From contig CAYSQB010000001.1 of assembly GCA_964433085.1 (NCBI GenBank), positions 16,845 to 80,844 on the forward strand: a stretch of 64,000 nucleotides of DNA, written 5' to 3'. This DNA is from an uncultured bacterium (lineage in GTDB: Bacteria > Fidelibacterota > Marinisomatia > Marinisomatales > AB-629-J13). Of this stretch, positions 15,683 to 60,636 are shown piece by piece. Below the pieces are notes generated by a model. The model was given only the letters and a program-made list of their open reading frames with translations. It ran no database searches and was not told the origin of the DNA. The position numbers were made by a program, and so were the translations under genes. Position 1 is the first letter of the stretch, and each line of letters starts with the position of its first letter.

Positions 15683-17311
15683 TCACTCACTCCTTAAAAT
15701 GATATTACCTGAATTATTTGCCCGTACCCAGTAACCTCTTCCCGGATAGATAACATCAGCATTAAAATAACTTCCATCATAACCATATATCTCCCCTGTA
15801 AAAACCAACTCTGAGCTGTAGAGCACATCTGCATCTACCGGTGTGGAGATTCCAGAAATGAGATTCCAGCCCTCTGTAAGTGATAGTGTGAGTTCATTGA
15901 TTGGTTGACCTGAAAAATCGGTTGTACCATCAGAAGAAAGTCGCAACAAGTACCCTGTCCCTGGAATGAGCATTGTTTCTGACTGGTATGCATCATCATA
16001 CAAAAACAGCGTACCTGTGTAGGCTTCGGGAAAGAGAGTCTGGTAGTGTATATTGCCAACATCCAGCGCAAGACCAACCATGTTCCAACCTAAGGAATAA
16101 TCTACAGCTACCTGCTGTGGGAGAGTCGGCGATTGTTTACTAAATGACAGTTCACGGGCGCCGAAGGTGCAGGGCGGAGTGAATGGATATTTGTCTGTTA
16201 TGTAGTAACCGTAATCTCCGTTCACATCGTAGGCACCATTGCACTCATCAAGATTTCCCGTACCAGCGAAATACCAGTCCTCTTCATAACGCCCCATTTC
16301 GAGTCCAAAGTCGCAGTCGAAATCATCGGGATTGTTCGCGATATCCCAAGGGGTAGGTGGGGTGCCGTGTAAAGCAGTTTCTATTGGTGTGCGTGAATTG
16401 CCTGTATAGGTTTCGTAACCGGATTCAGCTCTCACCAGTTGGTTGTTAGCGTTGATGAACCAATGCCCATAGATCGGAAAGCCATCTGGTGCGAATCCGA
16501 TAACAGGGGAAGCATCGCCGTTGGAAGGCGGCTGCGTTTGATCCGTATCTTCCTGCAGAGGATGGGTTAACGCATGGTAGTGGTAAGTGCCTTCATACCC
16601 ATGTGCAAAATAACTGTCAAACACGGCAGCCATATATTCTGCATCTGGTTGCCAAATCGTATACGCCGGTAACTCAAACCACGAATTTTGCGGACCGCAC
16701 CCCGAGGTATTGCAGGCCTCATTTGACTGCAGATATGGTGGTCCCGTGGTCACGCCCGGGTTATAGCAGAAACCGGAATCCATGGAAATGCCAACTCCAT
16801 TCAATAAAATACCATCAAAGTCGTAGGTAGGCGGATTTCTTGGAGTGTCTGTTTCTATATCAGTTCGGATTGGATCTACAGGAATATAGGTCACTTCTAT
16901 ATCCGAATGATCGATTGGATGTATCCAGCCATCACCATTAGGGCCGGTGACTTCCACACCGAAGTTATGATTCGGGATCATATTAGAAATAATTCTGCAA
17001 TGAGTCGCAAGCTCCGGCTCATTGGTAAACGTCACGTTGTCATAGTCATAGGCACTGGCATTCCAGCTACTTGCTATGACCAAATCAATATGCACATCGC
17101 TAACGGCGTTGTTGATGTCATTCGACATGTCCAAAATCTGATACGATCCGTAATCACCATCGTTTGCGTCCGTCGCGTAGGCTCTGCAGTCCGGGTTTCT
17201 GTTTATAAGTACCGCATCAAAAAATTGCCCATTCATATCCGGATTAGAGCTGTATATTAACGTGTCGGGCTGACTCCGTCCAAAACTCATCAATAAGAAG
17301 AACGTTAACAA
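15683..17311 (-). CDS. secreted YHYH-domain protein with tandem C-terminal GWN...GxGYxxR repeats
   Basis: GTYHYHALTHP plus GFAPDGFPIYG (YHYH domain), with a hydrophobic N-terminus. GC is clearly higher than in the flanking genes. The start may be ATA at 17332-17330 (see findings). Confidence 0.75.
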   Translation of the reverse strand: MLTFFLLMSFGRSQPDTLIYSSNPDMNGQFFDAVLINRNPDCRAYATDANDGDYGSYQILDMSNDINNAVSDVHIDLVIASSWNASAYDYDNVTFTNEPELATHCRIISNMIPNHNFGVEVTGPNGDGWIHPIDHSDIEVTYIPVDPIRTDIETDTPRNPPTYDFDGILLNGVGISMDSGFCYNPGVTTGPPYLQSNEACNTSGCGPQNSWFELPAYTIWQPDAEYMAAVFDSYFAHGYEGTYHYHALTHPLQEDTDQTQPPSNGDASPVIGFAPDGFPIYGHWFINANNQLVRAESGYETYTGNSRTPIETALHGTPPTPWDIANNPDDFDCDFGLEMGRYEEDWYFAGTGNLDECNGAYDVNGDYGYYITDKYPFTPPCTFGARELSFSKQSPTLPQQVAVDYSLGWNMVGLALDVGNIHYQTLFPEAYTGTLFLYDDAYQSETMLIPGTGYLLRLSSDGTTDFSGQPINELTLSLTEGWNLISGISTPVDADVLYSSELVFTGEIYGYDGSYFNADVIYPGRGYWVRANNSGNIILRSE

Positions 17312-17338
17312 TATTATTAGAATATTTTTTATGATGTA

Positions 17339-17343
17339 CTCCT
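17339..17343 (-). promoter_or_regulatory. Shine-Dalgarno-like AGGAG 6 nt upstream of a candidate ATA start of the YHYH gene
   Basis: The minus strand reads cAGGAGtacatcATAaaaaat. The downstream frame encodes KNILIILLTFFLLMSFG, a better signal peptide than the TTG-initiated form. Confidence 0.4.
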
Positions 17344-17510
17344 GATTCAGTTAAAAGGTCTAATAGATAATACATCTTGATGCAGAAAATGTCAATGATA
17401 GATATCACAGCCTAATTCCACCTGTTTTGTGTGAGAGATGGTTATATCTAAAACACAGGGGATTCCCCCAATGTGTGGATGAGGGGGGCTGTATTTAATT
17501 TTTATTCTAT

Positions 17511-45334: not shown

Positions 45335-46531
45335 TCACTTGAAATTCTGAATATCACTTTTAAAAAATCCGATCAATCCTGTAAGTGTTCCCCCAATACC
45401 AAAAACAAAGAACACAATATGAATGGAGATAATTTCTGCCATCATTCCCACCAAAGCCGTTGAAATTGCTGTCATACCAGAAACAGCTAAATGAACCATT
45501 GCAAATAGTCTTCCATGGTACCTATTGGGGGCATATTTTTGGAGAATTGTTGTTCGGGAAATTGTAATAATTGGAATTCCCATCCCGTGAAATATGATAA
45601 TGCACAGTGCCAATGGAACTGATTGCACCCAAAAGAAAAGAGCATAGGTCAATCCATCCCAGAGCATCCCCAATAGTAGTAGAAATCCATTTTTGAAGTG
45701 TTTGGAAAAACGGTACATAAAAAATGTACCTGTTAACATTCCCAAAGCCATACCAGCTTCCACAAAAGCAAAGTCAGATGCAGAGCCATGCAAGTAATGT
45801 TTGATCATGATAGGTAGACCTACGATGGCAGGACCCATAATGAAAATATTGTTAATTATTGTCAGTATAATAAGAAGTCCAATTGAGTTGTTTGTTTTAA
45901 GGTAATTAAAACCGGACCTCAGCTCCTGTAATCGAGAACCATTAACTGATTCTTTGAATTTATCAGTATAACGGATTGTCAGCAGTACTATTGCAGCAAG
46001 CAAGAAAGAAAATGCATCCCAAACAAACAGAATTTCAATTGACATTATGTTTAACAGAATGCCTGCTATTACTGGACCTGTAAAATAGGCAAATTGCCCG
46101 CTAGTAGCTATCAGTGAATTTATTTTTACTAATTTATCTTTGGGAAAGATCTCTGGTAAAAAGGCGTTTATTGCTGGTGGGAACAAAGAACCAAAAGCAG
46201 CACGAAGAAAAGCTAGGATTCCAATGATTAGTCCTGTTTTAATATTTATGAATAGAAGCATTGGAATAATTGCAACTACAGCTGCCTGAGAGAAATTTGA
46301 AAAAAGCATTAACTTCATTCTGTTATGTTGGTCTACCAACACACCGGCGAAGACCCCAAAAATGATAGCTGGTAAATAAGCACTCATAGCGACCAGACCA
46401 GTTACAAAGGGGGATTCAGTTATATCCAGAATTATCCAAACTAGAGCTAACTGATATACAGCATCACCGGTTGCCGAAATGGTTTGAGCTGTCCAGAGTT
46501 TTAATATGTTATGTTTGATTTGGGAACGAAT
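45335..46531 (-). CDS. MFS transporter (EntS/MFS_3-like); start inferred at a non-canonical ATT/ATC
   Basis: The ORF track starts at ATG 46387, but the frame stays open to TGA at 46549-46547. The extension encodes a conserved TM1 (NILKLWTAQTISATGDAVYQLALVWIIL) with no ATG/GTG/TTG. The exact start is uncertain. Confidence 0.85.
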   Translation of the reverse strand: MRSQIKHNILKLWTAQTISATGDAVYQLALVWIILDITESPFVTGLVAMSAYLPAIIFGVFAGVLVDQHNRMKLMLFSNFSQAAVVAIIPMLLFINIKTGLIIGILAFLRAAFGSLFPPAINAFLPEIFPKDKLVKINSLIATSGQFAYFTGPVIAGILLNIMSIEILFVWDAFSFLLAAIVLLTIRYTDKFKESVNGSRLQELRSGFNYLKTNNSIGLLIILTIINNIFIMGPAIVGLPIMIKHYLHGSASDFAFVEAGMALGMLTGTFFMYRFSKHFKNGFLLLLGMLWDGLTYALFFWVQSVPLALCIIIFHGMGIPIITISRTTILQKYAPNRYHGRLFAMVHLAVSGMTAISTALVGMMAEIISIHIVFFVFGIGGTLTGLIGFFKSDIQNFK

Positions 46532-46740
46532 GATAAAAATCGAGAATCAAATATTATTTATTAAGGTACTGAACTATCTTAAAAAGAGTTATCTTTTTAT
46601 ATTTTTTGTTATTATATAGTTTTATCGATCAGAATATTGGTTTTAATACTATAATGTATAAGGAGCAAATTTATTACCTAAAATACTTTTTCCCATGTAG
46701 AAATCCTCTTTAATTTTCGAAACAATTTTGGAGAAAAAAA

Positions 46741-47043
46741 ATGACATATATAATAGCTGAACCATGTGTTAGTACCTGTGATACTGCCTGTGTTGAAGTA
46801 TGCCCCGTAGATTGTATCCATGGTCCAGAAGACAAAACCGGAGCAGGAGAAGAGGCAAAGGAAGCAGGGTTTGATCCTGAAGGAAAACAATTATATATTG
46901 ATCCGGAAGAGTGTATTGACTGTGGTGCATGTGAACCAGAGTGCCCTGTTGAAGCAATATTTGAAGAGAGTGAAGTTCCGGAAGAATGGGACAAATATAT
47001 TAAGATCAATTACGAGTGGTTTGGCCAAGAATACACAGGTTAA
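46741..47043 (+). CDS. ferredoxin (7Fe-like, two cluster motifs)
   Basis: CVSTCDTACVEVCP and CIDCGACEPECP motifs. GGAG lies 7 nt upstream of the ATG. Confidence 0.9.
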   Translation: MTYIIAEPCVSTCDTACVEVCPVDCIHGPEDKTGAGEEAKEAGFDPEGKQLYIDPEECIDCGACEPECPVEAIFEESEVPEEWDKYIKINYEWFGQEYTG

Positions 47044-47065
47044 TTATTTTTCACCACTAAATATT

Positions 47066-47096
47066 AAACGGCTTTTTTAAAAAGCCGTTTTTTTCT
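47066..47096 (+). terminator. rho-independent terminator after ferredoxin (palindromic, potentially bidirectional)
   Basis: AAACGGCTTTT pairs with AAAAGCCGTTT across a 3-nt loop and runs into a T-tract. Confidence 0.8.
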
Positions 47097-47111
47097 TTAT
47101 CTAATTTCTAA

Positions 47112-48236
47112 ATGACAAAAGACCAAGTTTTAAAGATATTATCTCAAATTAATTATCCGGGATTTAGCCGTGATATTGTATCATTTGGGCTGATTGATGA
47201 TATTTCAGTGAGCGATGAAAATGTCCGGGTCACATTGAAACTTTCCGCTGAAAAATCCAAACAAGAAGAAATGCATAAGAGGGTTCGTGATGAATTAGAA
47301 TCACTTGGGAAATTTAAGAATGTGGACGTTGTGATGACTGGAGCAGCTCAGCCAATGGACAACATCGCTCAGTCTATGAAACCGGAAAAGGTAAAGAATA
47401 TCATTGCAGTTGCCAGCGGGAAAGGTGGTGTTGGCAAATCTACAGTGGCAGCCAATATTGCCTGTTCATTTTCCCGGAAAGGATATAAGGTTGGACTTCT
47501 GGACCTTGATATTTATGGCCCATCTCTACCAATTATTCTGGGGATAAATGAATCCCCTAAACTCACCCAAGATAAAAAACTAGTTCCTTTGAACTGGAAA
47601 GGATTAAAAGTACTTAGTTTTGGATTTATTAGTGGTAATGATTCTCCGGCAATCTGGCGTGGTCCTCTGGTTGCACGGATGACTGAGCAGTTTTTCCGTG
47701 ATGTTTTATGGGGAGATTTAGATTATCTTATTTTGGATCTTCCACCAGGGACTGGAGATGTTCAGCTAACACTCACACAAAAAATTCAAATTAGCGGGGC
47801 GGTTATTGTAACGACACCACAGGATATTGCACTTTCTGATGTAAGAAAAGGCGCGGATATGTTTCGTAAAGTTAATACTCCAGTTTTAGGTGTGATTGAA
47901 AATATGTCTGGATTAACTTTACTTGGGACAGTATTTGACTCAGAAAACAATCCCCTGAAAAGCGGTACAATTAAAATGGATAATAAAGAAAGCACCCATA
48001 TATATATAGATGATAAAGGAGCATTTACTGTGACCATTGACTTGTTTAAAAAAGGAGGGGGAGAGAGAGAAAGTCAGCGTCTTGGAGTACCCTTGTTGGG
48101 AAAGATTCCTTTGTCCCAAGCTATCATGGACTCAACAGATTCAGGTGCACCAATCACATTTAGCTTACCTGACACATCTGCTTCAAAAATATTTTCAGAT
48201 ATTGTATTACAAATTGAAAATAAACTTATATCTTAA
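47112..48236 (+). CDS. Mrp/NBP35 (ApbC) family P-loop ATPase with N-terminal DUF59 domain; lacks CXXC
   Basis: Deviant Walker A ASGKGGVGKST, DLPPGTGD and IENMS. The expected CXXC is replaced by a Cys-free insert of about 44 aa. Confidence 0.85.
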   Translation: MTKDQVLKILSQINYPGFSRDIVSFGLIDDISVSDENVRVTLKLSAEKSKQEEMHKRVRDELESLGKFKNVDVVMTGAAQPMDNIAQSMKPEKVKNIIAVASGKGGVGKSTVAANIACSFSRKGYKVGLLDLDIYGPSLPIILGINESPKLTQDKKLVPLNWKGLKVLSFGFISGNDSPAIWRGPLVARMTEQFFRDVLWGDLDYLILDLPPGTGDVQLTLTQKIQISGAVIVTTPQDIALSDVRKGADMFRKVNTPVLGVIENMSGLTLLGTVFDSENNPLKSGTIKMDNKESTHIYIDDKGAFTVTIDLFKKGGGERESQRLGVPLLGKIPLSQAIMDSTDSGAPITFSLPDTSASKIFSDIVLQIENKLIS

Positions 48237-48393
48237 CTATAATGATTATTGAAATTGAATGTTTATTGAATAATGAAACTGATTTTAATATTTTGAAGGG
48301 AACAGAACTTCCTAAACTACATAGAAGAAGTAAAATGTCAACTTATATTCTCCAATTTTATATGGGATTTGTCCAATCAGTTTAAAAAAAAAC

Positions 48394-49125
48394 ATTCTAA
48401 AGCAAAAAAGCATACCTAAGCATATTGCAATTATCATGGACGGGAATGGTCGTTGGGCAAAGGAGCGTTCAATGTCTCGGCTATCAGGTCACCATGAGGG
48501 GATAAATTCAGTTAGGGAGATTACTAGGGTCTGCGGCGAAATTGAAGTAGATTATTTAACTTTGTATACATTTTCTACTGAAAACTGGAGAAGGCCAAAA
48601 AGAGAGGTGTCCGCTCTAATGAGGTTATTACTTCACACTATCCGGGATGAGATTAAAAACCTTCATGAAAACAAGGTGAAATTGACAACAATAGGAGATT
48701 TAAGTGCATTGCCAAAATCAGCACGAGAAAATATCCAGGAAGGAATAAAAATAACTAAAAATAACAATGGACTGAATCTCATATTAGCATTAAACTATGG
48801 AGCTAGACAAGAGATAACCCGATCAGTGAAGAAACTGATAGATCAAATTATGTCAGGGAAAACTGTGCCAGAAGCCATTACTGAACAAAAAATTTCTGAA
48901 AATTTATATACAAATATGATCAGGGATCCAGATTTGCTTATTAGAACTGGAGGAGAAAGACGAATTAGTAATTTTCTATTATGGCAATTGGCTTATTCAG
49001 AATTATATATGACCGATATCCATTGGCCAGCATTCAGGGAAGAACAGCTTTTAACAGCTGTTCAGGATTTTCAAAAAAGAGAGCGACGATTCGGAAAAAT
49101 AAGTAAGCAGCTAAAACCTTCATGA
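48394..49125 (+). CDS. uppS: undecaprenyl-diphosphate synthase; start inferred at ATT
   Basis: DGNGRWA, GHHEG, FSTENWRRP and RTGGERRISNFLLWQ. The conserved IPKHIAII lies upstream of the first ATG (48436), in an open frame with no canonical start. Confidence 0.9.
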   Translation: MLKQKSIPKHIAIIMDGNGRWAKERSMSRLSGHHEGINSVREITRVCGEIEVDYLTLYTFSTENWRRPKREVSALMRLLLHTIRDEIKNLHENKVKLTTIGDLSALPKSARENIQEGIKITKNNNGLNLILALNYGARQEITRSVKKLIDQIMSGKTVPEAITEQKISENLYTNMIRDPDLLIRTGGERRISNFLLWQLAYSELYMTDIHWPAFREEQLLTAVQDFQKRERRFGKISKQLKPS

Positions 49126-51521
49126 GGAATATATTTTATAATCTTTTTTTACTCTTTTGTTTTTTCTGTGTATTTACACAGGCTCAATCTAAAATAAAGA
49201 TTCTTGATGTGGGGATTGAGGGGAATGTTGTTACAACTGATAGGATGATTCGATATACAGCTTCATTAAAAATTGGGAATGAAATCAATCCAGGAGATTT
49301 CTCAAAGGCGGTGAAGCGATTATGGAGATTAGGGATGTTTTCGGATATTCAAATTCGGCTTGACGAGGAAACGGATGAGGGTATTAAAATTACTATTATT
49401 GTTGAAGAAACTCCCATTCTCGGGAAAATCTTTTTTAAAGGTAATAAGAAAATTAAAGATTCTCAATTGGAAGAAAAATTGATGCTTGTCTCTGGGCAGC
49501 GGCTTAAACTGAATACTGTTCATGAAAAAATCCAGGAATTAAAAACAATATATGCAGAAGAAGGATTTTTGTTAGTAGACATAGAAAGTGAGCTGTCTCA
49601 GGCAAAAACTGTTCGGTCAAATGACCCAAAAATCCTGAATATCACAAAAGATTTAACATTTAATATAAAAGAGAACCGTAAAGTAAGAATTGGGGCTATT
49701 AAATTTGATGGGAACAAATCTTTCTCTGATTGGCGGCTCAGGAGAGTGATAAAAAACACAAAACAACAAAGGTGGTATCTATTTTGGCGGTCTCATTTTG
49801 ATACGGAGAAATTTGAAGAAGATATTGAGTCGCTTACCGCATTTTACAAAAATAAGGGATACCGGGACTTTATGTTTCTTTCAGACTCAATAGAGTACAG
49901 TAATGATAACAAAAAAATGAACGTTTATATAAAATTTACAGAGGGAGAAAAGTATAAATTTAGAAATTTCACTTGGGAAGGTAATACTTTATATGATGGA
50001 GAAACTCTAGGCCGCGCATTGGGACTAAAAAGTGGTGATACATACAATGAAGAAGATTTTAATAAAGCCATTTATGAACGTATGCAAAGTCTTTACATGG
50101 ATAGAGGATATATTTATAGCCGAGTTGAACCTTTGGTAACCCCCGTTGGAATAGACTCTCTGGATGTTCATTTCCGAATATTGGAAAACCACAAAGTCTT
50201 TGTAAGAAATATTATGATTGGTGGTAATACCAAAACAAGGGAAAATGTGATTCGACGTGAATTAAGGATTTTCCCTGGAGATGTGTTTAGTAGGGAAAAA
50301 TTAATTCGTAGTCAACAGGCTGCCTGGATGCTAAACTATTTTTCTAATGTAGTCCCAGATATGGTACCAGTAGATGAAGACCAGGTGGATTTAGACATAG
50401 TGGTTGAAGAAAAATCTGCTGACCGGGCAAATGCTAATATCGGGTTTACCGGTGAATATGGGATGACCGGTGGTGGTGGGCTCGAGTTTAATAATTTCAG
50501 AGGTCTAGGTCAGCGATTAATGTTCAGTTTTAATACAGGGACCAATTATTCAATTTATACTACCAGTACTCCCGCAAAATACCAATCAATAAGTCTCAGT
50601 TTTACTGATCCCATGGTGTACGATACACCAAATTTAATAGGATTTTCAATCTATTATTCATTCAGAGGTGCATCAACAAATTATTATTTTCCTCTAGACT
50701 TTACTGCAAAAGGCGGATCTGTTACATGGGGAAGACGTTTTCGCTGGCCCGATGATTATTTTAGAGGAAACTGGGCCTTGCGAGGCGTTGAAAAAGAATA
50801 TAGTGGAAATCAGGCTGATCTTGATCGATATGTGAAAGGATTAAATGTTTCCAGAGGAATAAATCTGACGCAAATAATCAGCAGAGACAGCAGAAATCGG
50901 CCTGAGTTTCCCACATTGGGGTCCCTGTTTTCCTTGGAAACCACACTATCTGGTGGCCCTTTAGGAGGGAATGAAGACTTTCATAAACATGTTTTGAAGT
51001 TAGAGTGGTATACACCTACATTCTGGAAATTTGTTTTGAAAAGTTCTTTTAATTTGGGAATGATAGAATCTCTGCCTTCGGAGAAAGACGAACTTTCTAT
51101 CATTCCATTTGATGAACGATTCATTATGGGTGGGAATGGAATCCCTTATGGGAATATGCTTAGAGGATATCCAGATAACTCCATTGGACCTGTTACCTCA
51201 GGCGGTAGCCCAATTGGGGGAAATGCTATGATAAAATTCAATACAGAATTCAGGTTTCCCTTTTCAGAAAATCCAGTTGTTTATGGTTTGATTTTTGGTG
51301 AGATGGGGAATGTCTGGAATTCATATCATATGAATGAACCATTTAATATATCCCGAGGCGGTGCATTGACATTAAGAAAATCAGCAGGGGTCGGCATTCG
51401 GTTTTTTATGCCGATGATAGGCATGCTGGGATTTGATTTAGGTTATGGATTTGATGATATAACCGGATCAGGCACTCCACAAGGATGGACGACGACCATA
51501 ATATTTGGACAACCATTTTAA
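49122..51521 (+). CDS. bamA: outer membrane protein assembly factor BamA
   Basis: Signal peptide, POTRA repeats and an Omp85 barrel ending IIFGQPF. ATGA overlap with uppS. Confidence 0.93.
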   Translation: MRNIFYNLFLLFCFFCVFTQAQSKIKILDVGIEGNVVTTDRMIRYTASLKIGNEINPGDFSKAVKRLWRLGMFSDIQIRLDEETDEGIKITIIVEETPILGKIFFKGNKKIKDSQLEEKLMLVSGQRLKLNTVHEKIQELKTIYAEEGFLLVDIESELSQAKTVRSNDPKILNITKDLTFNIKENRKVRIGAIKFDGNKSFSDWRLRRVIKNTKQQRWYLFWRSHFDTEKFEEDIESLTAFYKNKGYRDFMFLSDSIEYSNDNKKMNVYIKFTEGEKYKFRNFTWEGNTLYDGETLGRALGLKSGDTYNEEDFNKAIYERMQSLYMDRGYIYSRVEPLVTPVGIDSLDVHFRILENHKVFVRNIMIGGNTKTRENVIRRELRIFPGDVFSREKLIRSQQAAWMLNYFSNVVPDMVPVDEDQVDLDIVVEEKSADRANANIGFTGEYGMTGGGGLEFNNFRGLGQRLMFSFNTGTNYSIYTTSTPAKYQSISLSFTDPMVYDTPNLIGFSIYYSFRGASTNYYFPLDFTAKGGSVTWGRRFRWPDDYFRGNWALRGVEKEYSGNQADLDRYVKGLNVSRGINLTQIISRDSRNRPEFPTLGSLFSLETTLSGGPLGGNEDFHKHVLKLEWYTPTFWKFVLKSSFNLGMIESLPSEKDELSIIPFDERFIMGGNGIPYGNMLRGYPDNSIGPVTSGGSPIGGNAMIKFNTEFRFPFSENPVVYGLIFGEMGNVWNSYHMNEPFNISRGGALTLRKSAGVGIRFFMPMIGMLGFDLGYGFDDITGSGTPQGWTTTIIFGQPF

Positions 51522-51543
51522 TTAATATATTAGGAGAAAAAAA

Positions 51544-52080
51544 GTGAATAAAAATACAAAATATATATTTACACTTATAAGCATAGTTTTATTTCCGATG
51601 ATACTTTTTGGTCAGTTAAAAGTGGGATATGTTGCTTCAGACAGAATTCGATTGGAATATGAGGAGTTCAAAGAATCAGAGTCTCAATTGCAATTGGATT
51701 TTCAAAAGATTCAATTTGAATATCAGGAGATGGTGAAAGAATTAGATAGTTTAAAACAGGCATTTGATACTCAGCGATTGATGAGTTCTCCTGAATGGCG
51801 GCGGGAAAAAGAACAGAATATTAAAGATAAAGAAACGGCAATTCAGAACTTTCAGGCAAAAAAAGTTGGGCCTGAAGGTGATTTAGTAAAAAAACAATCT
51901 CAAATGGAATATGAATTACTCTCCAAGGTAAAAAAGGCAGTTGATAATGTTGCTATAGAAAAAGGGTATGATTTTATTTTTGATGGATCTATATCTCTGC
52001 TATATGGAAAACCCACTCATGATTTAACCGATGATGTGTTGCATGAATTGAGAAAAGTCAGTAGTAATACACCTAAATAG
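51544..52080 (+). CDS. skp: OmpH/Skp family periplasmic chaperone
   Basis: Signal peptide and a coiled-coil-rich 178-aa protein in the conserved position between bamA and lpxD. GTG start. Confidence 0.8.
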   Translation: MNKNTKYIFTLISIVLFPMILFGQLKVGYVASDRIRLEYEEFKESESQLQLDFQKIQFEYQEMVKELDSLKQAFDTQRLMSSPEWRREKEQNIKDKETAIQNFQAKKVGPEGDLVKKQSQMEYELLSKVKKAVDNVAIEKGYDFIFDGSISLLYGKPTHDLTDDVLHELRKVSSNTPK

Positions 52081-52088
52081 GTATTTAT

Positions 52089-53090
52089 TTGCCAACATTG
52101 GAGCAATTGGCAGAATTAGTAGGAGGGGAACCAGTTGGTCAATCTGACTTGATTGTTTCTGGTGTATCTGAGATACAAGATGGGGAACAGGGGACAATAT
52201 CTTTTTTAGCAAATCCTATGTATAAAAAATATGTAGAGTCCACGAAAGCTTCGGCAGTAGTTGTTTCAGATTCTTCACTGTTAAATGGACAAAACGGAAT
52301 TGTAGTTCGAAACCCTCAGCTTGCATTTTCAAAAATTCTAGGTGAATTCAGCCCAAGATATACAACACAAAAAGGTATTCATCCCACTGCTGTTGTTGAT
52401 CCGTCTGTGCACTTAGGGGATGCTGTTTCTGTAGGAGCCAATGCTGTAATCCAAGAAAATGTAACTATTGGAGAAGGGACCAGGGTCGAAGCCAACTCAG
52501 TGATAGGTTGTAATACTGTAATTGGAAAAGAATGTAGAATCCATCCTCGTGTCACAATTTATCATGATTGCACCATTGGAGATCGTGTTGTTATTTTCAG
52601 CGGAACTGTGATAGGATGCGATGGTTTCGGATTTGTAACGGAACAGAATACCCACTATAAGATTCCTCAAATTGGCAAAGTGATTATTGGAAGTGATGTA
52701 GAAATAGGTGCAAATTGTGCAATTGACCGAGCTACTATAGGAGAAACAATCATAGGAAAGATGACCAAATTAGACAATCTCATTCATATTGCTCATAATG
52801 TTAAGATAGGGGTGGGATGTCTCCTTGCTGCAGGCGTAGGTATTGCAGGAAGTGTGACCATCGAAGATTATTGTATATTAGCTGGACAATCAGGTGTTGT
52901 TCCTCATGTTACTATTGGGACTAAATCTATTATTGCAGTCAAATCAGGAGTAACAAAATCTCTAAAGGGTGGAGAGATATATTCAGGGATGCCAGCTAGG
53001 AAAATTCGTGAACAGAATAAAAAAGATGCCATATTATCATCGGTTTCCCTGTTGAAAAACCGAATAGAAAAATTAGAAAAATCACTTTAA
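52089..53090 (+). CDS. lpxD: UDP-3-O-acylglucosamine N-acyltransferase
   Basis: N-terminal LpxD domain (ISFLANPMYKKY) and hexapeptide repeats. TTG start. Confidence 0.92.
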   Translation: MPTLEQLAELVGGEPVGQSDLIVSGVSEIQDGEQGTISFLANPMYKKYVESTKASAVVVSDSSLLNGQNGIVVRNPQLAFSKILGEFSPRYTTQKGIHPTAVVDPSVHLGDAVSVGANAVIQENVTIGEGTRVEANSVIGCNTVIGKECRIHPRVTIYHDCTIGDRVVIFSGTVIGCDGFGFVTEQNTHYKIPQIGKVIIGSDVEIGANCAIDRATIGETIIGKMTKLDNLIHIAHNVKIGVGCLLAAGVGIAGSVTIEDYCILAGQSGVVPHVTIGTKSIIAVKSGVTKSLKGGEIYSGMPARKIREQNKKDAILSSVSLLKNRIEKLEKSL

Positions 53091-53093
53091 AAA

Positions 53094-54029
53094 ATGACAC
53101 TTCAACATAGGTTCCAGCGCACTATTTCAAAGCCAGTTTCCTGTACAGGAGTTGGACTACATACGGGACTTGAAAGCACAATTACATTCAGGCCTGCTCC
53201 TGAAGATTTTGGCATACATTTTATACGGCAGGACATAAAAAATTGTCCCGAAATTATGGCAGACATAGATCATGTTGTGGATATTTCCAGAGGGACTACT
53301 ATCGAACAAAACGGGGTCAAAATTTTTACTGTTGAACATGCACTTGCGGCGGTTTCGGGCTTGCGAATTGACAATGTGTTAATTGAATTGAGCGCAAAAG
53401 AACCTCCAGTTATGGATGGTAGTTCAAAGGACTTTGTTGAAGTGCTGCAAAATGCAAATATTTTGGAACAGAAAAAACCTCGAAGAGTGTTGGAAATATC
53501 TGAACCGGTTTCCTATTCAGATCCAAAAAGAGGCGTAGATATTCACGTTGTCCCTTCTGACCAATTTAGAGTCACCTTTATGATTGATTATAAACTTCCA
53601 TCCCTAGGCTCTCAATATACTGCTGTTTACAATATGCAGGAGGATTTTGCACGAGAGGTTGCACCTGCAAGGACATTCTGTTTCTTAAGTGAGATTGAAG
53701 AACTCAAAGAAGCTGGCCTAATTAAAGGGGGAGGTTTAGATAACGCCGTAGTTATTGTTGATAAAGAAATTAACTATTATGAGGTGAACAAGCTCAAATC
53801 GCTTTTTGGGATAGAGGAAGAAATTATAATGGGCGCTAATGGTATTTTGAATGGAAAGAGGTTAAGGTATAAAAATGAGCCGGTTCGCCATAAAACTCTG
53901 GATCTAATTGGAGATATGGCCTTGCTTGGATACCCAATTAAAGGCCATGTTACTGCTGCAAGAAGTGGGCACGCTAGCAATGTAGAATTTGTTAAAATGA
54001 TTCGCAGTACTTATTCAGAATTTTTTTAG
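53094..54029 (+). CDS. lpxC: UDP-3-O-acyl-N-acetylglucosamine deacetylase
   Basis: GVGLHTG, TVEHALAA, EPPVMDGS and HKTLDLIGD. Confidence 0.93.
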   Translation: MTLQHRFQRTISKPVSCTGVGLHTGLESTITFRPAPEDFGIHFIRQDIKNCPEIMADIDHVVDISRGTTIEQNGVKIFTVEHALAAVSGLRIDNVLIELSAKEPPVMDGSSKDFVEVLQNANILEQKKPRRVLEISEPVSYSDPKRGVDIHVVPSDQFRVTFMIDYKLPSLGSQYTAVYNMQEDFAREVAPARTFCFLSEIEELKEAGLIKGGGLDNAVVIVDKEINYYEVNKLKSLFGIEEEIIMGANGILNGKRLRYKNEPVRHKTLDLIGDMALLGYPIKGHVTAARSGHASNVEFVKMIRSTYSEFF

Positions 54030-54038
54030 TAGTTACCC

Positions 54039-54485
54039 ATGCCAAAGCCTTCCTTTTTAATCGAGGACATATTAAAGATTGTCCCACATCGTTATCCGTT
54101 TATACTTATTGATCGTATTATAAATTATAATCCTGGGGATAAATTAACGGCAATTAAAAATGTAACCATAAACGAGAATTTTTTTCAAGGTCATTTTCCT
54201 AATCAACCCGTAATGCCAGGAGTACTGATTTTGGAAGCTATGGCACAGGCAGGAGCATTTTTGGTTCTAAATACAGTTGATAATCCATTGGAAAAGAATA
54301 TGTTTTTTACAGGTATTTCTAATTCAAAATTTAGAGCACCTGTAACTCCAGGGGATCAATTACGTTTGGAAATAAAATTAATTAAAATTAAGCTAACTGC
54401 GGTGCGGTTGCAGGGAGAAGCCTATGTGGAAGATAAACTAGTTGCCCAGGCGCTCATTATGGCCAATATTGTTAATAGAGCATAA
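54039..54485 (+). CDS. fabZ: 3-hydroxyacyl-ACP dehydratase FabZ
   Basis: HRYPFILIDRI and FFQGHFPNQPVMPGVL. Confidence 0.95.
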   Translation: MPKPSFLIEDILKIVPHRYPFILIDRIINYNPGDKLTAIKNVTINENFFQGHFPNQPVMPGVLILEAMAQAGAFLVLNTVDNPLEKNMFFTGISNSKFRAPVTPGDQLRLEIKLIKIKLTAVRLQGEAYVEDKLVAQALIMANIVNRA

Positions 54486-54490
54486 GGGAG
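54485..54490 (+). promoter_or_regulatory. Shine-Dalgarno-like AGGGAG 6 nt upstream of proposed ATT start of lpxA
   Basis: The sequence reads ...TAAGGGAGaaattaATTtctacc.... SD-like motifs are sporadic in this window, so its placement is notable. Confidence 0.55.
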
Positions 54491-54496
54491 AAATTA

Positions 54497-55270
54497 ATTT
54501 CTACCTCCATTCATCCTACAGCCATAGTACACAAAGGAGCTGATTTAGGCGAAAACGTAAGCATAGGTCCTTTTGTATATATTGCAAATGGTGTAACAAT
54601 TGGTTCAGGAACAAAAGTTGAAAATTTTGCAGTTATTAAATCCAATACATTTATCGGAGAAAATTGTAGAATATTTCAAGGATCTGTCATTGGGGAAATT
54701 CCACAAGATTTAAAGTTTGCCGGTGAAAAGACAGAAACAAGGGTTGGTGATAATACCACCATTAGGGAATTCGTGACCATAAACAGAGGGACCTCAGCTT
54801 TAGGATATACTGAAGTTGGGGAAAATGTTTTATTGATGGCCTATTGCCACATTGCCCATGATTGTATAGTAGGAGATAATGTTATCATGGCGAATATGGC
54901 AACATTGGGAGGTCATGTAGAGCTTGGAAATTGGGCATTTTTGGGGGGTGGTGTTTTGGTACATCAATTTTGTAAAGTTGGGGAACATTCTTTAATCGCT
55001 GCCGGATTCAGGGCAGTACAGGACGTTCCTCCTTTTATATGGGCCTCAGGTGAGCCGATTCAATACAGTGGTATAAATAATGTGGGTTTAAAAAGAAGAG
55101 GATTTTCGTCTGAAGAAAGGCGATTAATAAAGCAGATTTACATGTTATATTTTCGCTCAAAACTTCCCAGAGTGAAAGCACTGAATAAGATTAAAATTCA
55201 ATTTTCAAAGAATCCTTTGGGAAAAACAATTGTAGATTTTATTGAAAAAAGTAACCGGGGAATTATATAA
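54497..55270 (+). CDS. lpxA: acyl-ACP--UDP-N-acetylglucosamine O-acyltransferase; ATT start inferred
   Basis: The frame is open from 54479. It encodes (I)STSIHPTAIVHKGADLGENVSIGPF...PQDLKFAGE...TINRGT, continuous with the ORF-track fragment (54773-55270). The product is 257 aa. There is no ATG/GTG/TTG before 54773. Confidence 0.9.
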   Translation: MSTSIHPTAIVHKGADLGENVSIGPFVYIANGVTIGSGTKVENFAVIKSNTFIGENCRIFQGSVIGEIPQDLKFAGEKTETRVGDNTTIREFVTINRGTSALGYTEVGENVLLMAYCHIAHDCIVGDNVIMANMATLGGHVELGNWAFLGGGVLVHQFCKVGEHSLIAAGFRAVQDVPPFIWASGEPIQYSGINNVGLKRRGFSSEERRLIKQIYMLYFRSKLPRVKALNKIKIQFSKNPLGKTIVDFIEKSNRGII

Positions 55271-59207: not shown

Positions 59208-59812
59208 CTAAATCTCCTCAATTTTTTATCAATAAGTTTATAAATAGTTGATCCATGTGAAGGAGGAAGAGGGCCTTCATCTACCATCAAATCAATTTTA
59301 TCTTCAAATTGTTTCATGATATCATCAGGATCATTTAATGGTGGGTGTCCGGTATGATTGACGCTGGTAGTTGTGATAGGGTGATTTAGCCTATGAACAA
59401 GATTTTTCCCAAAATAATGACCCGGCATTCGGATTCCTATCGAATGGTTTGGTCCAAAAATTTCAGGGCACAGGACTCTCTTTTTACCAGGAACAATGAT
59501 AGTGTTTGTCCCACCAAGATTTTTCGATAGAATATTTTTTTCTTCTTCAGATAAGTTGGAGATTTCAAATGCCATGGTAATATTGCTGACTAAAACACTT
59601 ATTGGGCCACGGCGTTTTTTGATATTATAAATTTTATTGATGACGGTGCTATTGGTGGCATCTCCACCAAATCCATATAAAGTGTCCGTAGGATACACGA
59701 TTATTCCACCAGATTTTATGGTTTTTTCAGCTAAGGAATTGACATTCGTAGATTGTGAGGAAATTCGCTGACTCATTTTCCTGGTGGAGGAGTTTTCCAT
59801 CGGTTGTGCCAC
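59204..59812 (-). CDS. tsaC: L-threonylcarbamoyladenylate synthase (TsaC/YrdC)
   Basis: GGIIVYPTDTLYGFGGDA and SVN.TG motifs. The true start is probably the ATG at 59776 (MSQRISS...), immediately after the upstream stop. Confidence 0.85.
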   Translation of the reverse strand: MAQPMENSSTRKMSQRISSQSTNVNSLAEKTIKSGGIIVYPTDTLYGFGGDATNSTVINKIYNIKKRRGPISVLVSNITMAFEISNLSEEEKNILSKNLGGTNTIIVPGKKRVLCPEIFGPNHSIGIRMPGHYFGKNLVHRLNHPITTTSVNHTGHPPLNDPDDIMKQFEDKIDLMVDEGPLPPSHGSTIYKLIDKKLRRFR

Positions 59813-60636
59813 CAGAAATATTGTTCGGGATGGATGCGAATCTCATTTTCTAGTAGTTGGGTATATGCTTGGGTGAATGTCTCAGTATCTGACCAAGATT
59901 CTTTGGGGATATCCTTAAGTTTAATAAAAAATTGATTATGTCCTTCTTTACTGCACACACCAAATATAGGGATGGAGCCTTTATGTTGATAAAATCGTGC
60001 TGCTCCTTTTGGGGTTGAAGAAAGGATATTAAAAAAATGTACAAACGCTCCTCTGTTTTTAGCATCCTGGTCGCTTATTAATCCCAAAATACCACCATCA
60101 TCCAAGACCTTGTTCATTTTTTCTAAAGAATCTTTTCTGAAAATGTGTTTAATCCCACTCCATTCTCTCTTTTTTCTAAAAAACTGATGGGCCCCTTTAT
60201 TTTTTTGTTTTTGCGCAACCCCCGTAAGAGGATAATTTTGTTTTCCAAGCCAGGCAATGTTACATTCCCAAAATCCAAAATGCCCTGTTATGTATAGCAC
60301 CCCTTTTTTTTGTTTTAATGCATCATCAATTAAATTTTTATTTTTTACCTGAATATTTGTTTGACCATAGGATTCTGGGAATCCAAAAAAAAGCAGAAAC
60401 TGTTCCATGAAAAAAGAATAGGATTTTTTAAGAATTCGAGTTTTCCATTGATCAGATTTATTGGGAAAAGCTTTATCAATATTTTTTAATGCCAGATATT
60501 TTCTTGTTGGAATATTCCGGTAGACAAATCCCCCAATTTTTTGTGCCAAAACTACCCTTCTATGTGCGTTTAATCTACATGCGAAACGGGAAAGGCAATC
60601 AAGAAAAAAAATCAATATACGTTCATTTAGTTTCAT
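59773..60636 (-). CDS. lipid A biosynthesis (LpxL/HtrB-type) lysophospholipid acyltransferase
   Basis: ITGHFGFWE (HX4E) and PEQYFWWHNRWK. Confidence 0.8.
   Translation of the reverse strand: MKLNERILIFFLDCLSRFACRLNAHRRVVLAQKIGGFVYRNIPTRKYLALKNIDKAFPNKSDQWKTRILKKSYSFFMEQFLLFFGFPESYGQTNIQVKNKNLIDDALKQKKGVLYITGHFGFWECNIAWLGKQNYPLTGVAQKQKNKGAHQFFRKKREWSGIKHIFRKDSLEKMNKVLDDGGILGLISDQDAKNRGAFVHFFNILSSTPKGAARFYQHKGSIPIFGVCSKEGHNQFFIKLKDIPKESWSDTETFTQAYTQLLENEIRIHPEQYFWWHNRWKTPPPGK

Follow-up and report, generated by a model that had tools for sequence, protein, structure and literature searches.

An AUU codon that appears to be a selected weak start of lpxA in a large Marinimicrobia clade, and younger losses of the canonical start in two neighbouring genes

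In Escherichia coli, infC and pcnB use AUU as their initiation codon, and the codons AUU, AUC and AUA (AUH; ATH in DNA) reach 0.1-3% of the level of AUG (10.1101/063800). Behind a Shine-Dalgarno (SD) sequence AUU lies 6-8 fold below AUG, and about half of the initiation at the infC junction is reinitiation (PMC3592434). A conserved ATC start has been described for dnaA of Deinococcus (PMC2830850). Here we analyse lpxA and two other genes in a stretch of 64,000 nucleotides from an uncultured bacterium (GenBank assembly GCA_964433085.1, contig CAYSQB010000001.1, positions 16,845 to 80,844 of the forward strand; hereafter the window). Three of its about 56 genes, lpxA, uppS and a gene for a transporter of the major facilitator superfamily (MFS), have a conserved N-terminus that cannot be encoded from any in-frame ATG, GTG or TTG (canonical codons below), just as the initial annotation of the window had stated. 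To judge from their relatives, these are probably three independent events of different age and not the expression of one genome-wide property, and the oldest of them, the ATT of lpxA, looks like a weak start under selection and not like the result of erosion.

Stop-to-stop frames of the window were listed and their translations scanned with NCBIfam and Pfam. The frame of lpxA is open from 54479 to 55270 (+), and its first canonical codon is a GTG at codon 99. Residues 9-263 of this frame align with positions 4-259 of the LpxA equivalog profile NF003657, the alignments of NF003657 and TIGR01852 beginning at residues 9-11, and the product of 257 amino acids predicted from the ATT, with the N-terminus (M)STSIHPTAIVHK, matches LpxA chains in the PDB from its residues 3-5. 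Both an SD motif and coupling to fabZ had been proposed for this gene, and the layout agrees with both, with GGGAG 6 nt and the fabZ stop 11 nt upstream of the ATT.

The window was assigned to Marinimicrobia (SAR406) because its best LpxA and BamA relatives are Neomarinimicrobiota metagenome-assembled genomes (MAGs) and marine contigs with the same gene order. Among species-representative genomes the closest LpxA sequences are those of two 'Candidatus Neomarinimicrobiota' MAGs (61% identity), with Bacteroidota and others at about 50%; a metagenome scan with BamA yielded 80 marine contigs, graded from 98% to about 40% identity and mostly sharing the order glpK, MFS, ferredoxin, mrp, uppS, bamA, skp, lpxD, lpxC, fabZ, lpxA, dxr. 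The comparison set comprised about 90 related contigs and, for the lpxA junction, 56 Marinimicrobia-like loci in which the junction is intact and 77 control or outgroup loci. In the Marinimicrobia-like loci the start column, four codons before the motif I-H-P-T, holds ATT in 46, ATC in 5, ATA in 2 and TTG in 1, which has switched; in two more an ATC is displaced by an insertion of two codons. In 41 of the 56 the stretch from the upstream stop to the HPT motif has no canonical codon in frame, and the first internal one ranges from about codon 13 to codon 131. By comparison, all 77 control loci are canonical at lpxA (ATG in Bacteroidota, Calditrichota, WOR-3 and others), and the four most distant contigs of the BamA scan start lpxA with GTG (L153, L155, L156) or TTG (L157).

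The gap between the fabZ stop and the ATT is 1-2 nt in most loci and otherwise 9-12 nt, or the two overlap by one base; an SD-like 4-mer is found at positions -17 to -4 of the lpxA start in 42 of 48 distinct junctions, and across the clade an SD-like motif lies 5-9 nt ahead of the AUH codon. RNAalifold detected no conserved structure in the alignment of the fabZ-lpxA junction. On this comparative evidence the lpxA start combines three features expected of an AUH-initiated gene, namely the lack of a canonical alternative, a conserved AUH codon and an SD or coupled stop.

The pattern of substitution in the start column separates a start signal from an ordinary isoleucine. The first two letters of the codon, AT, never vary in the aligned DNA, and none of the 48 distinct sequences has Val, Leu or Met in this column, whereas such replacements occur in 17 of 18 other conserved Ile columns. 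The share of ATT among the Ile codons is 85% at the start column as against 57% at internal conserved Ile columns, in a comparison that ignores kinship. Because Val, Leu and Met are absent and ATT is enriched, selection would seem to act on the triplet as a start signal and not on isoleucine. Moreover, ATG is only one change away from ATT and yet is found in none of the 48 distinct clade sequences, which suggests that the weakness of the start has been kept up. The clade that carries the ATT is deep, with LpxA identity down to about 47%, and has separate lpxC and fabZ genes (the window, L001-L002, L081-L152); in the Marinimicrobia-like lineages with a fused lpxC-fabZ of 467 amino acids (L173, L174) lpxA starts with ATG. 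The ATT start, as predicted here, is thus a trait of a large Marinimicrobia clade and not of the whole phylum, and the splitting or fusion of lpxC-fabZ and the start codon of lpxA may have changed together.

Of the described systems, infC offers the closest parallel. In E. coli and many other bacteria AUU (AUA in some lineages) is conserved at the start of this one gene, the codon follows within a few nucleotides of the stop of the upstream gene (thrS; UAA GGU AUU in E. coli) and behind an SD sequence, and reinitiation is combined with de novo initiation (PMC3592434, PMC2830850). The two genes differ in that the weak codon of infC is the sensor of an autoregulatory loop, in which initiation factor 3 (IF3) discriminates against AUU, while no such loop is known for lpxA; the infC codon is also found in most bacteria, whereas the lpxA ATT is conserved in one clade of one phylum. 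Like pcnB with AUU in E. coli, dnaA with AUC in Deinococcus and ebpA with ATT in Enterococcus faecalis, lpxA would belong to the AUH-limited genes that were first mis-called (PMC2830850, PMC4447247, 10.1101/063800), and the dnaA N-terminus and its ATC are likewise common to related Deinococcus species (PMC2830850). For pcnB, dnaA and ebpA there is protein or reporter evidence, whereas the evidence for lpxA is comparative; on the other hand, the conservation of the lpxA codon is taxonomically deeper than in any of these three. The E. coli fabZ-lpxA junction has the same design, with an SD sequence GGGAGG in the 3' end of fabZ, a TGA, a 3-nt gap TAC and then GTG, and E. coli fabZ itself starts with TTG. 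The E. coli GTG, unlike the ATT, is canonical, accepted by all gene callers and roughly ten-fold or more stronger than AUU. Our literature search retrieved no paper that joins lpxA, AUU and the start codon, and nothing relevant on start codons of Marinimicrobia.

The consequences for annotation are those that had been predicted from the window, as assemblies from JGI, ENA and NCBI contain an LpxA of 165, an UppS of 229 and an MFS protein of 350 amino acids. LpxA predictions of the clade in the protein collection measure 165 (P0017), 225, 241, 254 and 257-284 amino acids; the JGI call in L181, for example, gives the 165-residue product (1682-2179) and leaves a gap of 288 nt after fabZ. Two NCBI records (GCA_030751535.1 and GCA_002730315.1) annotate an LpxA of 257 amino acids with ATT as its first codon, so that this start has, by implication, been called by one pipeline already. 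For the window species, no Met-started 257-residue LpxA from the ATT is on record.

The case of uppS is of a different age. Its frame is open from 48334 to 49125 (+), and the first canonical codon, ATG 48436 at codon 35, is the Met of IIMDGNGRWA; the alignments of the models begin at residues 19-27 (NF011405 at residue 19), and that of PF01255 at residue 34. In all relatives the ATG of uppS lies 17-21 codons before IIMDGNGRWA, and in L081, L082 and L086 (sister species), L149 and L084 it stands exactly at the ATT codon of the window. At this place the sister species, at 91% nucleotide identity, has GAG ATG TGT CCA ATC and the window has GGG ATT TGT CCA ATC. The ATT and an identical 229-residue product recur on 8 independent contigs (JGI, NCBI, ENA/Tara) that are 96.8-99.9% identical to the window. 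The replacement of ATG by ATT is thus, as far as these alignments reach, a recent change fixed in the window species only. From the ATT, UppS would begin (M)CPISLK... and aligns end to end with the 253-residue UppS of E. coli (query residue 18 matching chain residue 19), whereas a product from the canonical Met would miss the conserved HIAII just before the catalytic DGNGRW motif. This HIAII stretch we take to be the first beta-strand of the E. coli UppS fold. No SD motif was found upstream of the uppS ATT in the window.

Coupling of uppS to a short upstream open reading frame (ORF; ATG 48335 to TAA 48385) had also been suggested. This ORF is the 3' part of a 47-codon ORF which stop codons break in L084 and L085 and which lacks its ATG in L081, and since it is not conserved in these relatives we rejected the coupling; the 47-residue ORF that fills the gap between mrp and uppS is probably a spurious call enabled by the shortened uppS. 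Rescue of an upstream ATG by an indel in a poly-A(9) run at 48384-48392 was likewise discarded, as the out-of-frame ORF ends at the TAA that opens the run. The run itself lies on the (+) strand in the 5' coding region of uppS (AAA AAA AAC; the sister species has AAAAAACAA) and could slip as a homopolymer, and it is identical in all 8 assemblies. In many other loci (L096, L097, L098, L104, L108, L088 and others), though not in the window, a DNA motif GGTAATTTCGCCCGCTTTTT(T/C) is conserved in several frames 10-40 nt upstream of the uppS ATG; it may be a terminator or the last part of a gene that lies upstream. Two extra genes of about 263 and about 100 amino acids, without a Pfam match, lie between mrp and uppS in L170 and L171 (2690-3810); these extra genes of other Marinimicrobia are missing in the window clade (compare window 48237-48366).

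The MFS gene has an open frame from 45335 to 46546 (-) with ATG 46387, codon 54, as its first canonical codon. TIGR00900 and PF05977 align from residue 16, and a start at codon 54 would therefore cost the protein its first transmembrane segment (TM1). An in-frame TTG start is present in L084 (82% amino acid identity) and L085 (71%), more distant relatives have ATG, and the canonical start is missing in the window species and the sister species only. The TTG itself survives there out of frame, since its distance to a conserved CAA is 28 nt in the window and L081 and not 21 nt as in L084. In codons 8-53, the 46 codons upstream of Met54, we counted 6 synonymous and 5 nonsynonymous changes relative to the sister L081, and 12 synonymous and 5 nonsynonymous changes with a third-position bias relative to L084; this stretch is therefore diverging as coding sequence does, as far as such counts can tell. 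At 46534 and 46531 an ATH codon is shared with the sister species alone, and these two codons are the likeliest starts. None of the candidate starts has an SD motif upstream in the window, and the 5' region is identical in 3 assemblies.

In the remainder of the window, the genes for TatD, YjbQ, the CCA-adding enzyme, a GNAT protein, MetRS, a MacB-like permease and LpxL have room upstream, and their canonical starts fit. The stops upstream of the three startless frames are TAG, TAA and TGA, on account of which stop-codon reassignment was rejected.

To estimate how common such genes are, 5,219 stop-to-stop ORFs of the window and of 160 loci were compared all against all, the best-supported non-overlapping frames were used, and each flag was examined manually; the sample covers the region syntenic with the window, and the controls are mostly Bacteroidota. 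The automated screen flagged 85 Marinimicrobia and 20 control ORFs, of which most proved to be artefacts. These included antisense shadow ORFs at the ends of loci, skp flags in which the flagged stretch was the bamA 3' end and SD in frame (the real starts are GTG, TTG or ATG), tsaC flags in which the 'element' was the C-terminal motif of LpxL in the other frame, and uppS flags in six loci that reflected conserved DNA upstream of a normal ATG. Among the 56 instances of lpxA, the screen flagged 35. Leaving lpxA aside, real cases amount to 5 of 851 Marinimicrobia instances with informative N-termini (MFS in 4 loci, uppS in 1) and to 3 of 876 control instances (L006, L010, L155), rates that do not differ (Fisher p = 0.35). 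When the window species was extended by 5.3 kb and 10 kb, none of 17 further genes was affected, and ATG makes up about 85% of the first canonical starts in the window. The proposal that about 5% of genes genome-wide start at AUH is thus not borne out; in these counts the lineage does not have an AUH frequency well above that of other bacteria, as relaxed start-codon fidelity would predict. As a rough figure, the background of sporadic startless genes in MAG data would be about 0.3-0.6% of gene instances (about 0.3% in the controls). A search for infC and tRNA-fMet in the window and in all fetched loci found neither for this lineage. Coordinates of all features are collected in Table 1.

Table 1. 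Positions of the genes, start codons and ORFs discussed (window positions unless a locus is named)
Feature	Position	Strand	Remark
lpxA, proposed coding sequence	54497..55270	+	ATT 54497-54499 as putative initiation codon; 257 codons + stop
SD motif GGGAG	54486..54490	+	6 nt upstream of lpxA ATT
fabZ	54039..54485	+	stop TAA 54483-54485, 11 nt before lpxA ATT; translational-coupling layout
Shortened 165-aa 'lpxA' of gene callers	54773..55270	+	GTG 54773
uppS, proposed coding sequence	48367..49125	+	ATT 48367-48369 as putative initiation codon; 252 codons + stop
Shortened 229-aa 'uppS' of gene callers	48436..49125	+	begins at Met of IIMDGNGRWA
47-codon ORF between mrp and uppS	48242..48385	+	called in L161-L168; probably no gene
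MFS transporter (MFS_3/EntS-like), full N-terminus	45335..46540	-	candidate starts ATT 46540, ATC 46534, ATT 46531
TTG, out of frame (+1) in window and sister species	46548..46550	-	in-frame start in L084, L085
YHYH-domain protein	15683..17332	-	possible ATA start 17332-17330; AGGAG 17343-17339, 6 nt before
ABC ATPase, Ferruginibacter	L006 2756-3433	+	ATA where orthologues have ATG
Small protein, Flavobacteriaceae	L010 12344-12754	+	ATA where orthologues have ATG
lpxC(-fabZ), outgroup	L155 14078-15598	+	first canonical codon at residue 117

The initial annotation had offered, as one reading of the three genes, AT-biased mutation that erodes ATG to ATH across the genome, with about 5% of genes starting at AUH and tolerated through relaxed proofreading by IF3 or the initiator tRNA. 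Such erosion would fit the clustering of three cases in 56 genes, all inside 10 kb, the youth of two of them (uppS and MFS), the AT-richness of the window (34-40% GC over most of its length), the YHYH gene as a possible fourth case, and the frequency of sporadic cases in the window species (2/72 against 3/876 in controls, p = 0.049, a post hoc comparison, these cases being the reason why the window was chosen). However, the ATT of lpxA is ancient, conserved and never ATG, neither the rate outside lpxA nor the 17 additional genes of the species show an excess, the window is dominated by ATG starts, and Bacteroidota MAGs contain sporadic ATA cases of a similar kind. We therefore regard genome-wide erosion as distinctly unlikely, and what stands of the idea is local, as it describes uppS in one species and, loosely, the net +1 indel of MFS, but not lpxA. 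It is very unlikely, too, that lpxA starts at a canonical codon, either a TTG inside fabZ or an internal GTG or ATG, with the Ile-Ser of the start column being ordinary coding sequence or untranslated. An in-frame TTG does lie 7-8 codons upstream, within fabZ, in 13 of the 56 loci, and gene callers do pick such codons (P0011, P0077). Yet this TTG is a by-product of the conserved C-terminus of fabZ (…AATATTGTTGAC…) that arises in one relative frame only, and it is separated from the ATT by the SD; the 41 loci that have no canonical codon before HPT could use only internal ones, which would cost the left-handed beta-helix domain up to 98 residues, and Val or Leu never occupies the start column.

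That the ATH codons are assembly or consensus errors, or that the three genes are pseudogenes, we consider hardly credible. The source is a metagenome-type assembly, and at the start codon of uppS one base separates the window from the sister species; but the same uppS allele is found in 8 assemblies of different projects, including strains that are 3% divergent, the MFS 5' region is shared by its three assemblies, and the lpxA ATT is seen in more than 50 contigs. Sequencing error, which would have overturned the initial annotation, is rejected on account of this agreement. All three ORFs are also intact, of full length and matched end to end by their family profiles, and in diderm bacteria both lpxA and uppS are as a rule essential. 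Recoding is no more plausible, whether as a FabZ-LpxA fusion by programmed frameshifting or readthrough, at which the abutting or overlapping of fabZ and lpxA might hint, or as translation of MFS from its out-of-frame TTG, which persists in the DNA of the window clade, followed by a frameshift. Loci differ in the fabZ stop (TAA, TAG or TGA), in the spacing from stop to ATT (-1 to 12 nt) and in the relative frame, fabZ-lpxA has neither a conserved slippery heptamer nor an RNA structure, and the window and L081 share no slippery site between the TTG and the MFS frame. Frameshift and fusion models were rejected on these grounds.

Three separate origins of the startless genes would accommodate these observations as follows. 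LpxA would be translated from AUU, which the initiator tRNA would read with a mismatch at the third position, and the SD together with ribosomes terminating on fabZ (termination-reinitiation, as at thrS-infC) would offset the weak codon and the discrimination by IF3. The weak codon may be under selection to hold LpxA low relative to FabZ, its rival for the same hydroxyacyl-ACP (acyl carrier protein), and would extend the weak-start design seen in E. coli (GTG) and the outgroups (GTG/TTG). In the MFS gene a net +1 indel, which occurred before the window species and its sister parted, took the TTG out of frame, and translation might now begin at any one of the two or three AUH codons that lie side by side. 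A single change of ATG to ATT, fixed in the window species, would leave uppS with low-level translation from AUU, which may be tolerable for an enzyme of low abundance. A stronger version, in which the lpxA AUU is an IF3-sensitive valve that ties lipid A synthesis to initiation capacity or growth state at the FabZ/LpxA branch point and the window species is in addition unusually tolerant of AUH, seems to us unlikely; the missing ATG at the lpxA start (0/48) is the only, and indirect, hint of regulation sensed by IF3.

Several points weigh against the reading of lpxA as a selected weak start and of the three genes as independent events. The figure for ATT enrichment at the lpxA start ignores phylogenetic non-independence, the TTG inside fabZ in the 13 loci could be used instead, and in L170, a genome of 2.14 Mb, a TTG overlaps the lpxA SD. 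A low LpxA:FabZ ratio as the selective reason is our inference only. The signal of coding divergence in the MFS N-terminus relative to the sister species comes from only 11 changed codons. For uppS and MFS the AUH codons named are candidates, and a shortened or non-functional product is conceivable; for all three genes the AUH start is deduced from comparison of sequences. Finally, given the sporadic cases in the window species alone, its tolerance of AUH may be mildly raised.

A few observations concern other genes of the window. The frame of the YHYH-domain protein is open from 15683 to 17350 (-), and translation from ATA 17332 would give a textbook signal peptide (MKNILIILL...); a start at the in-frame TTG of codon 14 or at the ATG of codon 21 would give a poor one. 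Homologues searched to fix the start have unrelated N-termini and provide no anchor; the ATA is a possible start. Weak canonical starts are common in the envelope operon of the window. For skp/ompH (51544-52080 (+); orthologues in L081-L160) a GTG or TTG start behind a strong AAGGAGG is found in most Marinimicrobia loci, and lpxD has a TTG start at 52089 with a strong SD upstream. At 59773-59842 (-) about 70 nt are common to an open frame of the tsaC/Sua5 family and the 3' end of lpxL; the strongly conserved DNA of this overlap is the C-terminal PEQYFW.HRRWK motif of LpxL in a second frame and not a regulatory element.

Marinimicrobia are an abundant, uncultured ocean lineage. Callers restricted to ATG, GTG and TTG, such as pipelines of the Prodigal type, leave the LpxA of the clade without up to 98 residues or let it run into fabZ, and in the window species they would produce an UppS without its first beta-strand and an MFS protein without TM1. 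In metabolic reconstructions such calls can pass for pseudogenes or make lipopolysaccharide or peptidoglycan-carrier pathways look incomplete, and they pollute protein clusters. If the start of lpxA behind fabZ is indeed a weak start under selection, it would add a well-conserved case to the very few non-canonical starts known in bacteria, and would point to the translational setting of the FabZ:LpxA ratio, by GTG in E. coli and by ATT here, as a conserved design principle.

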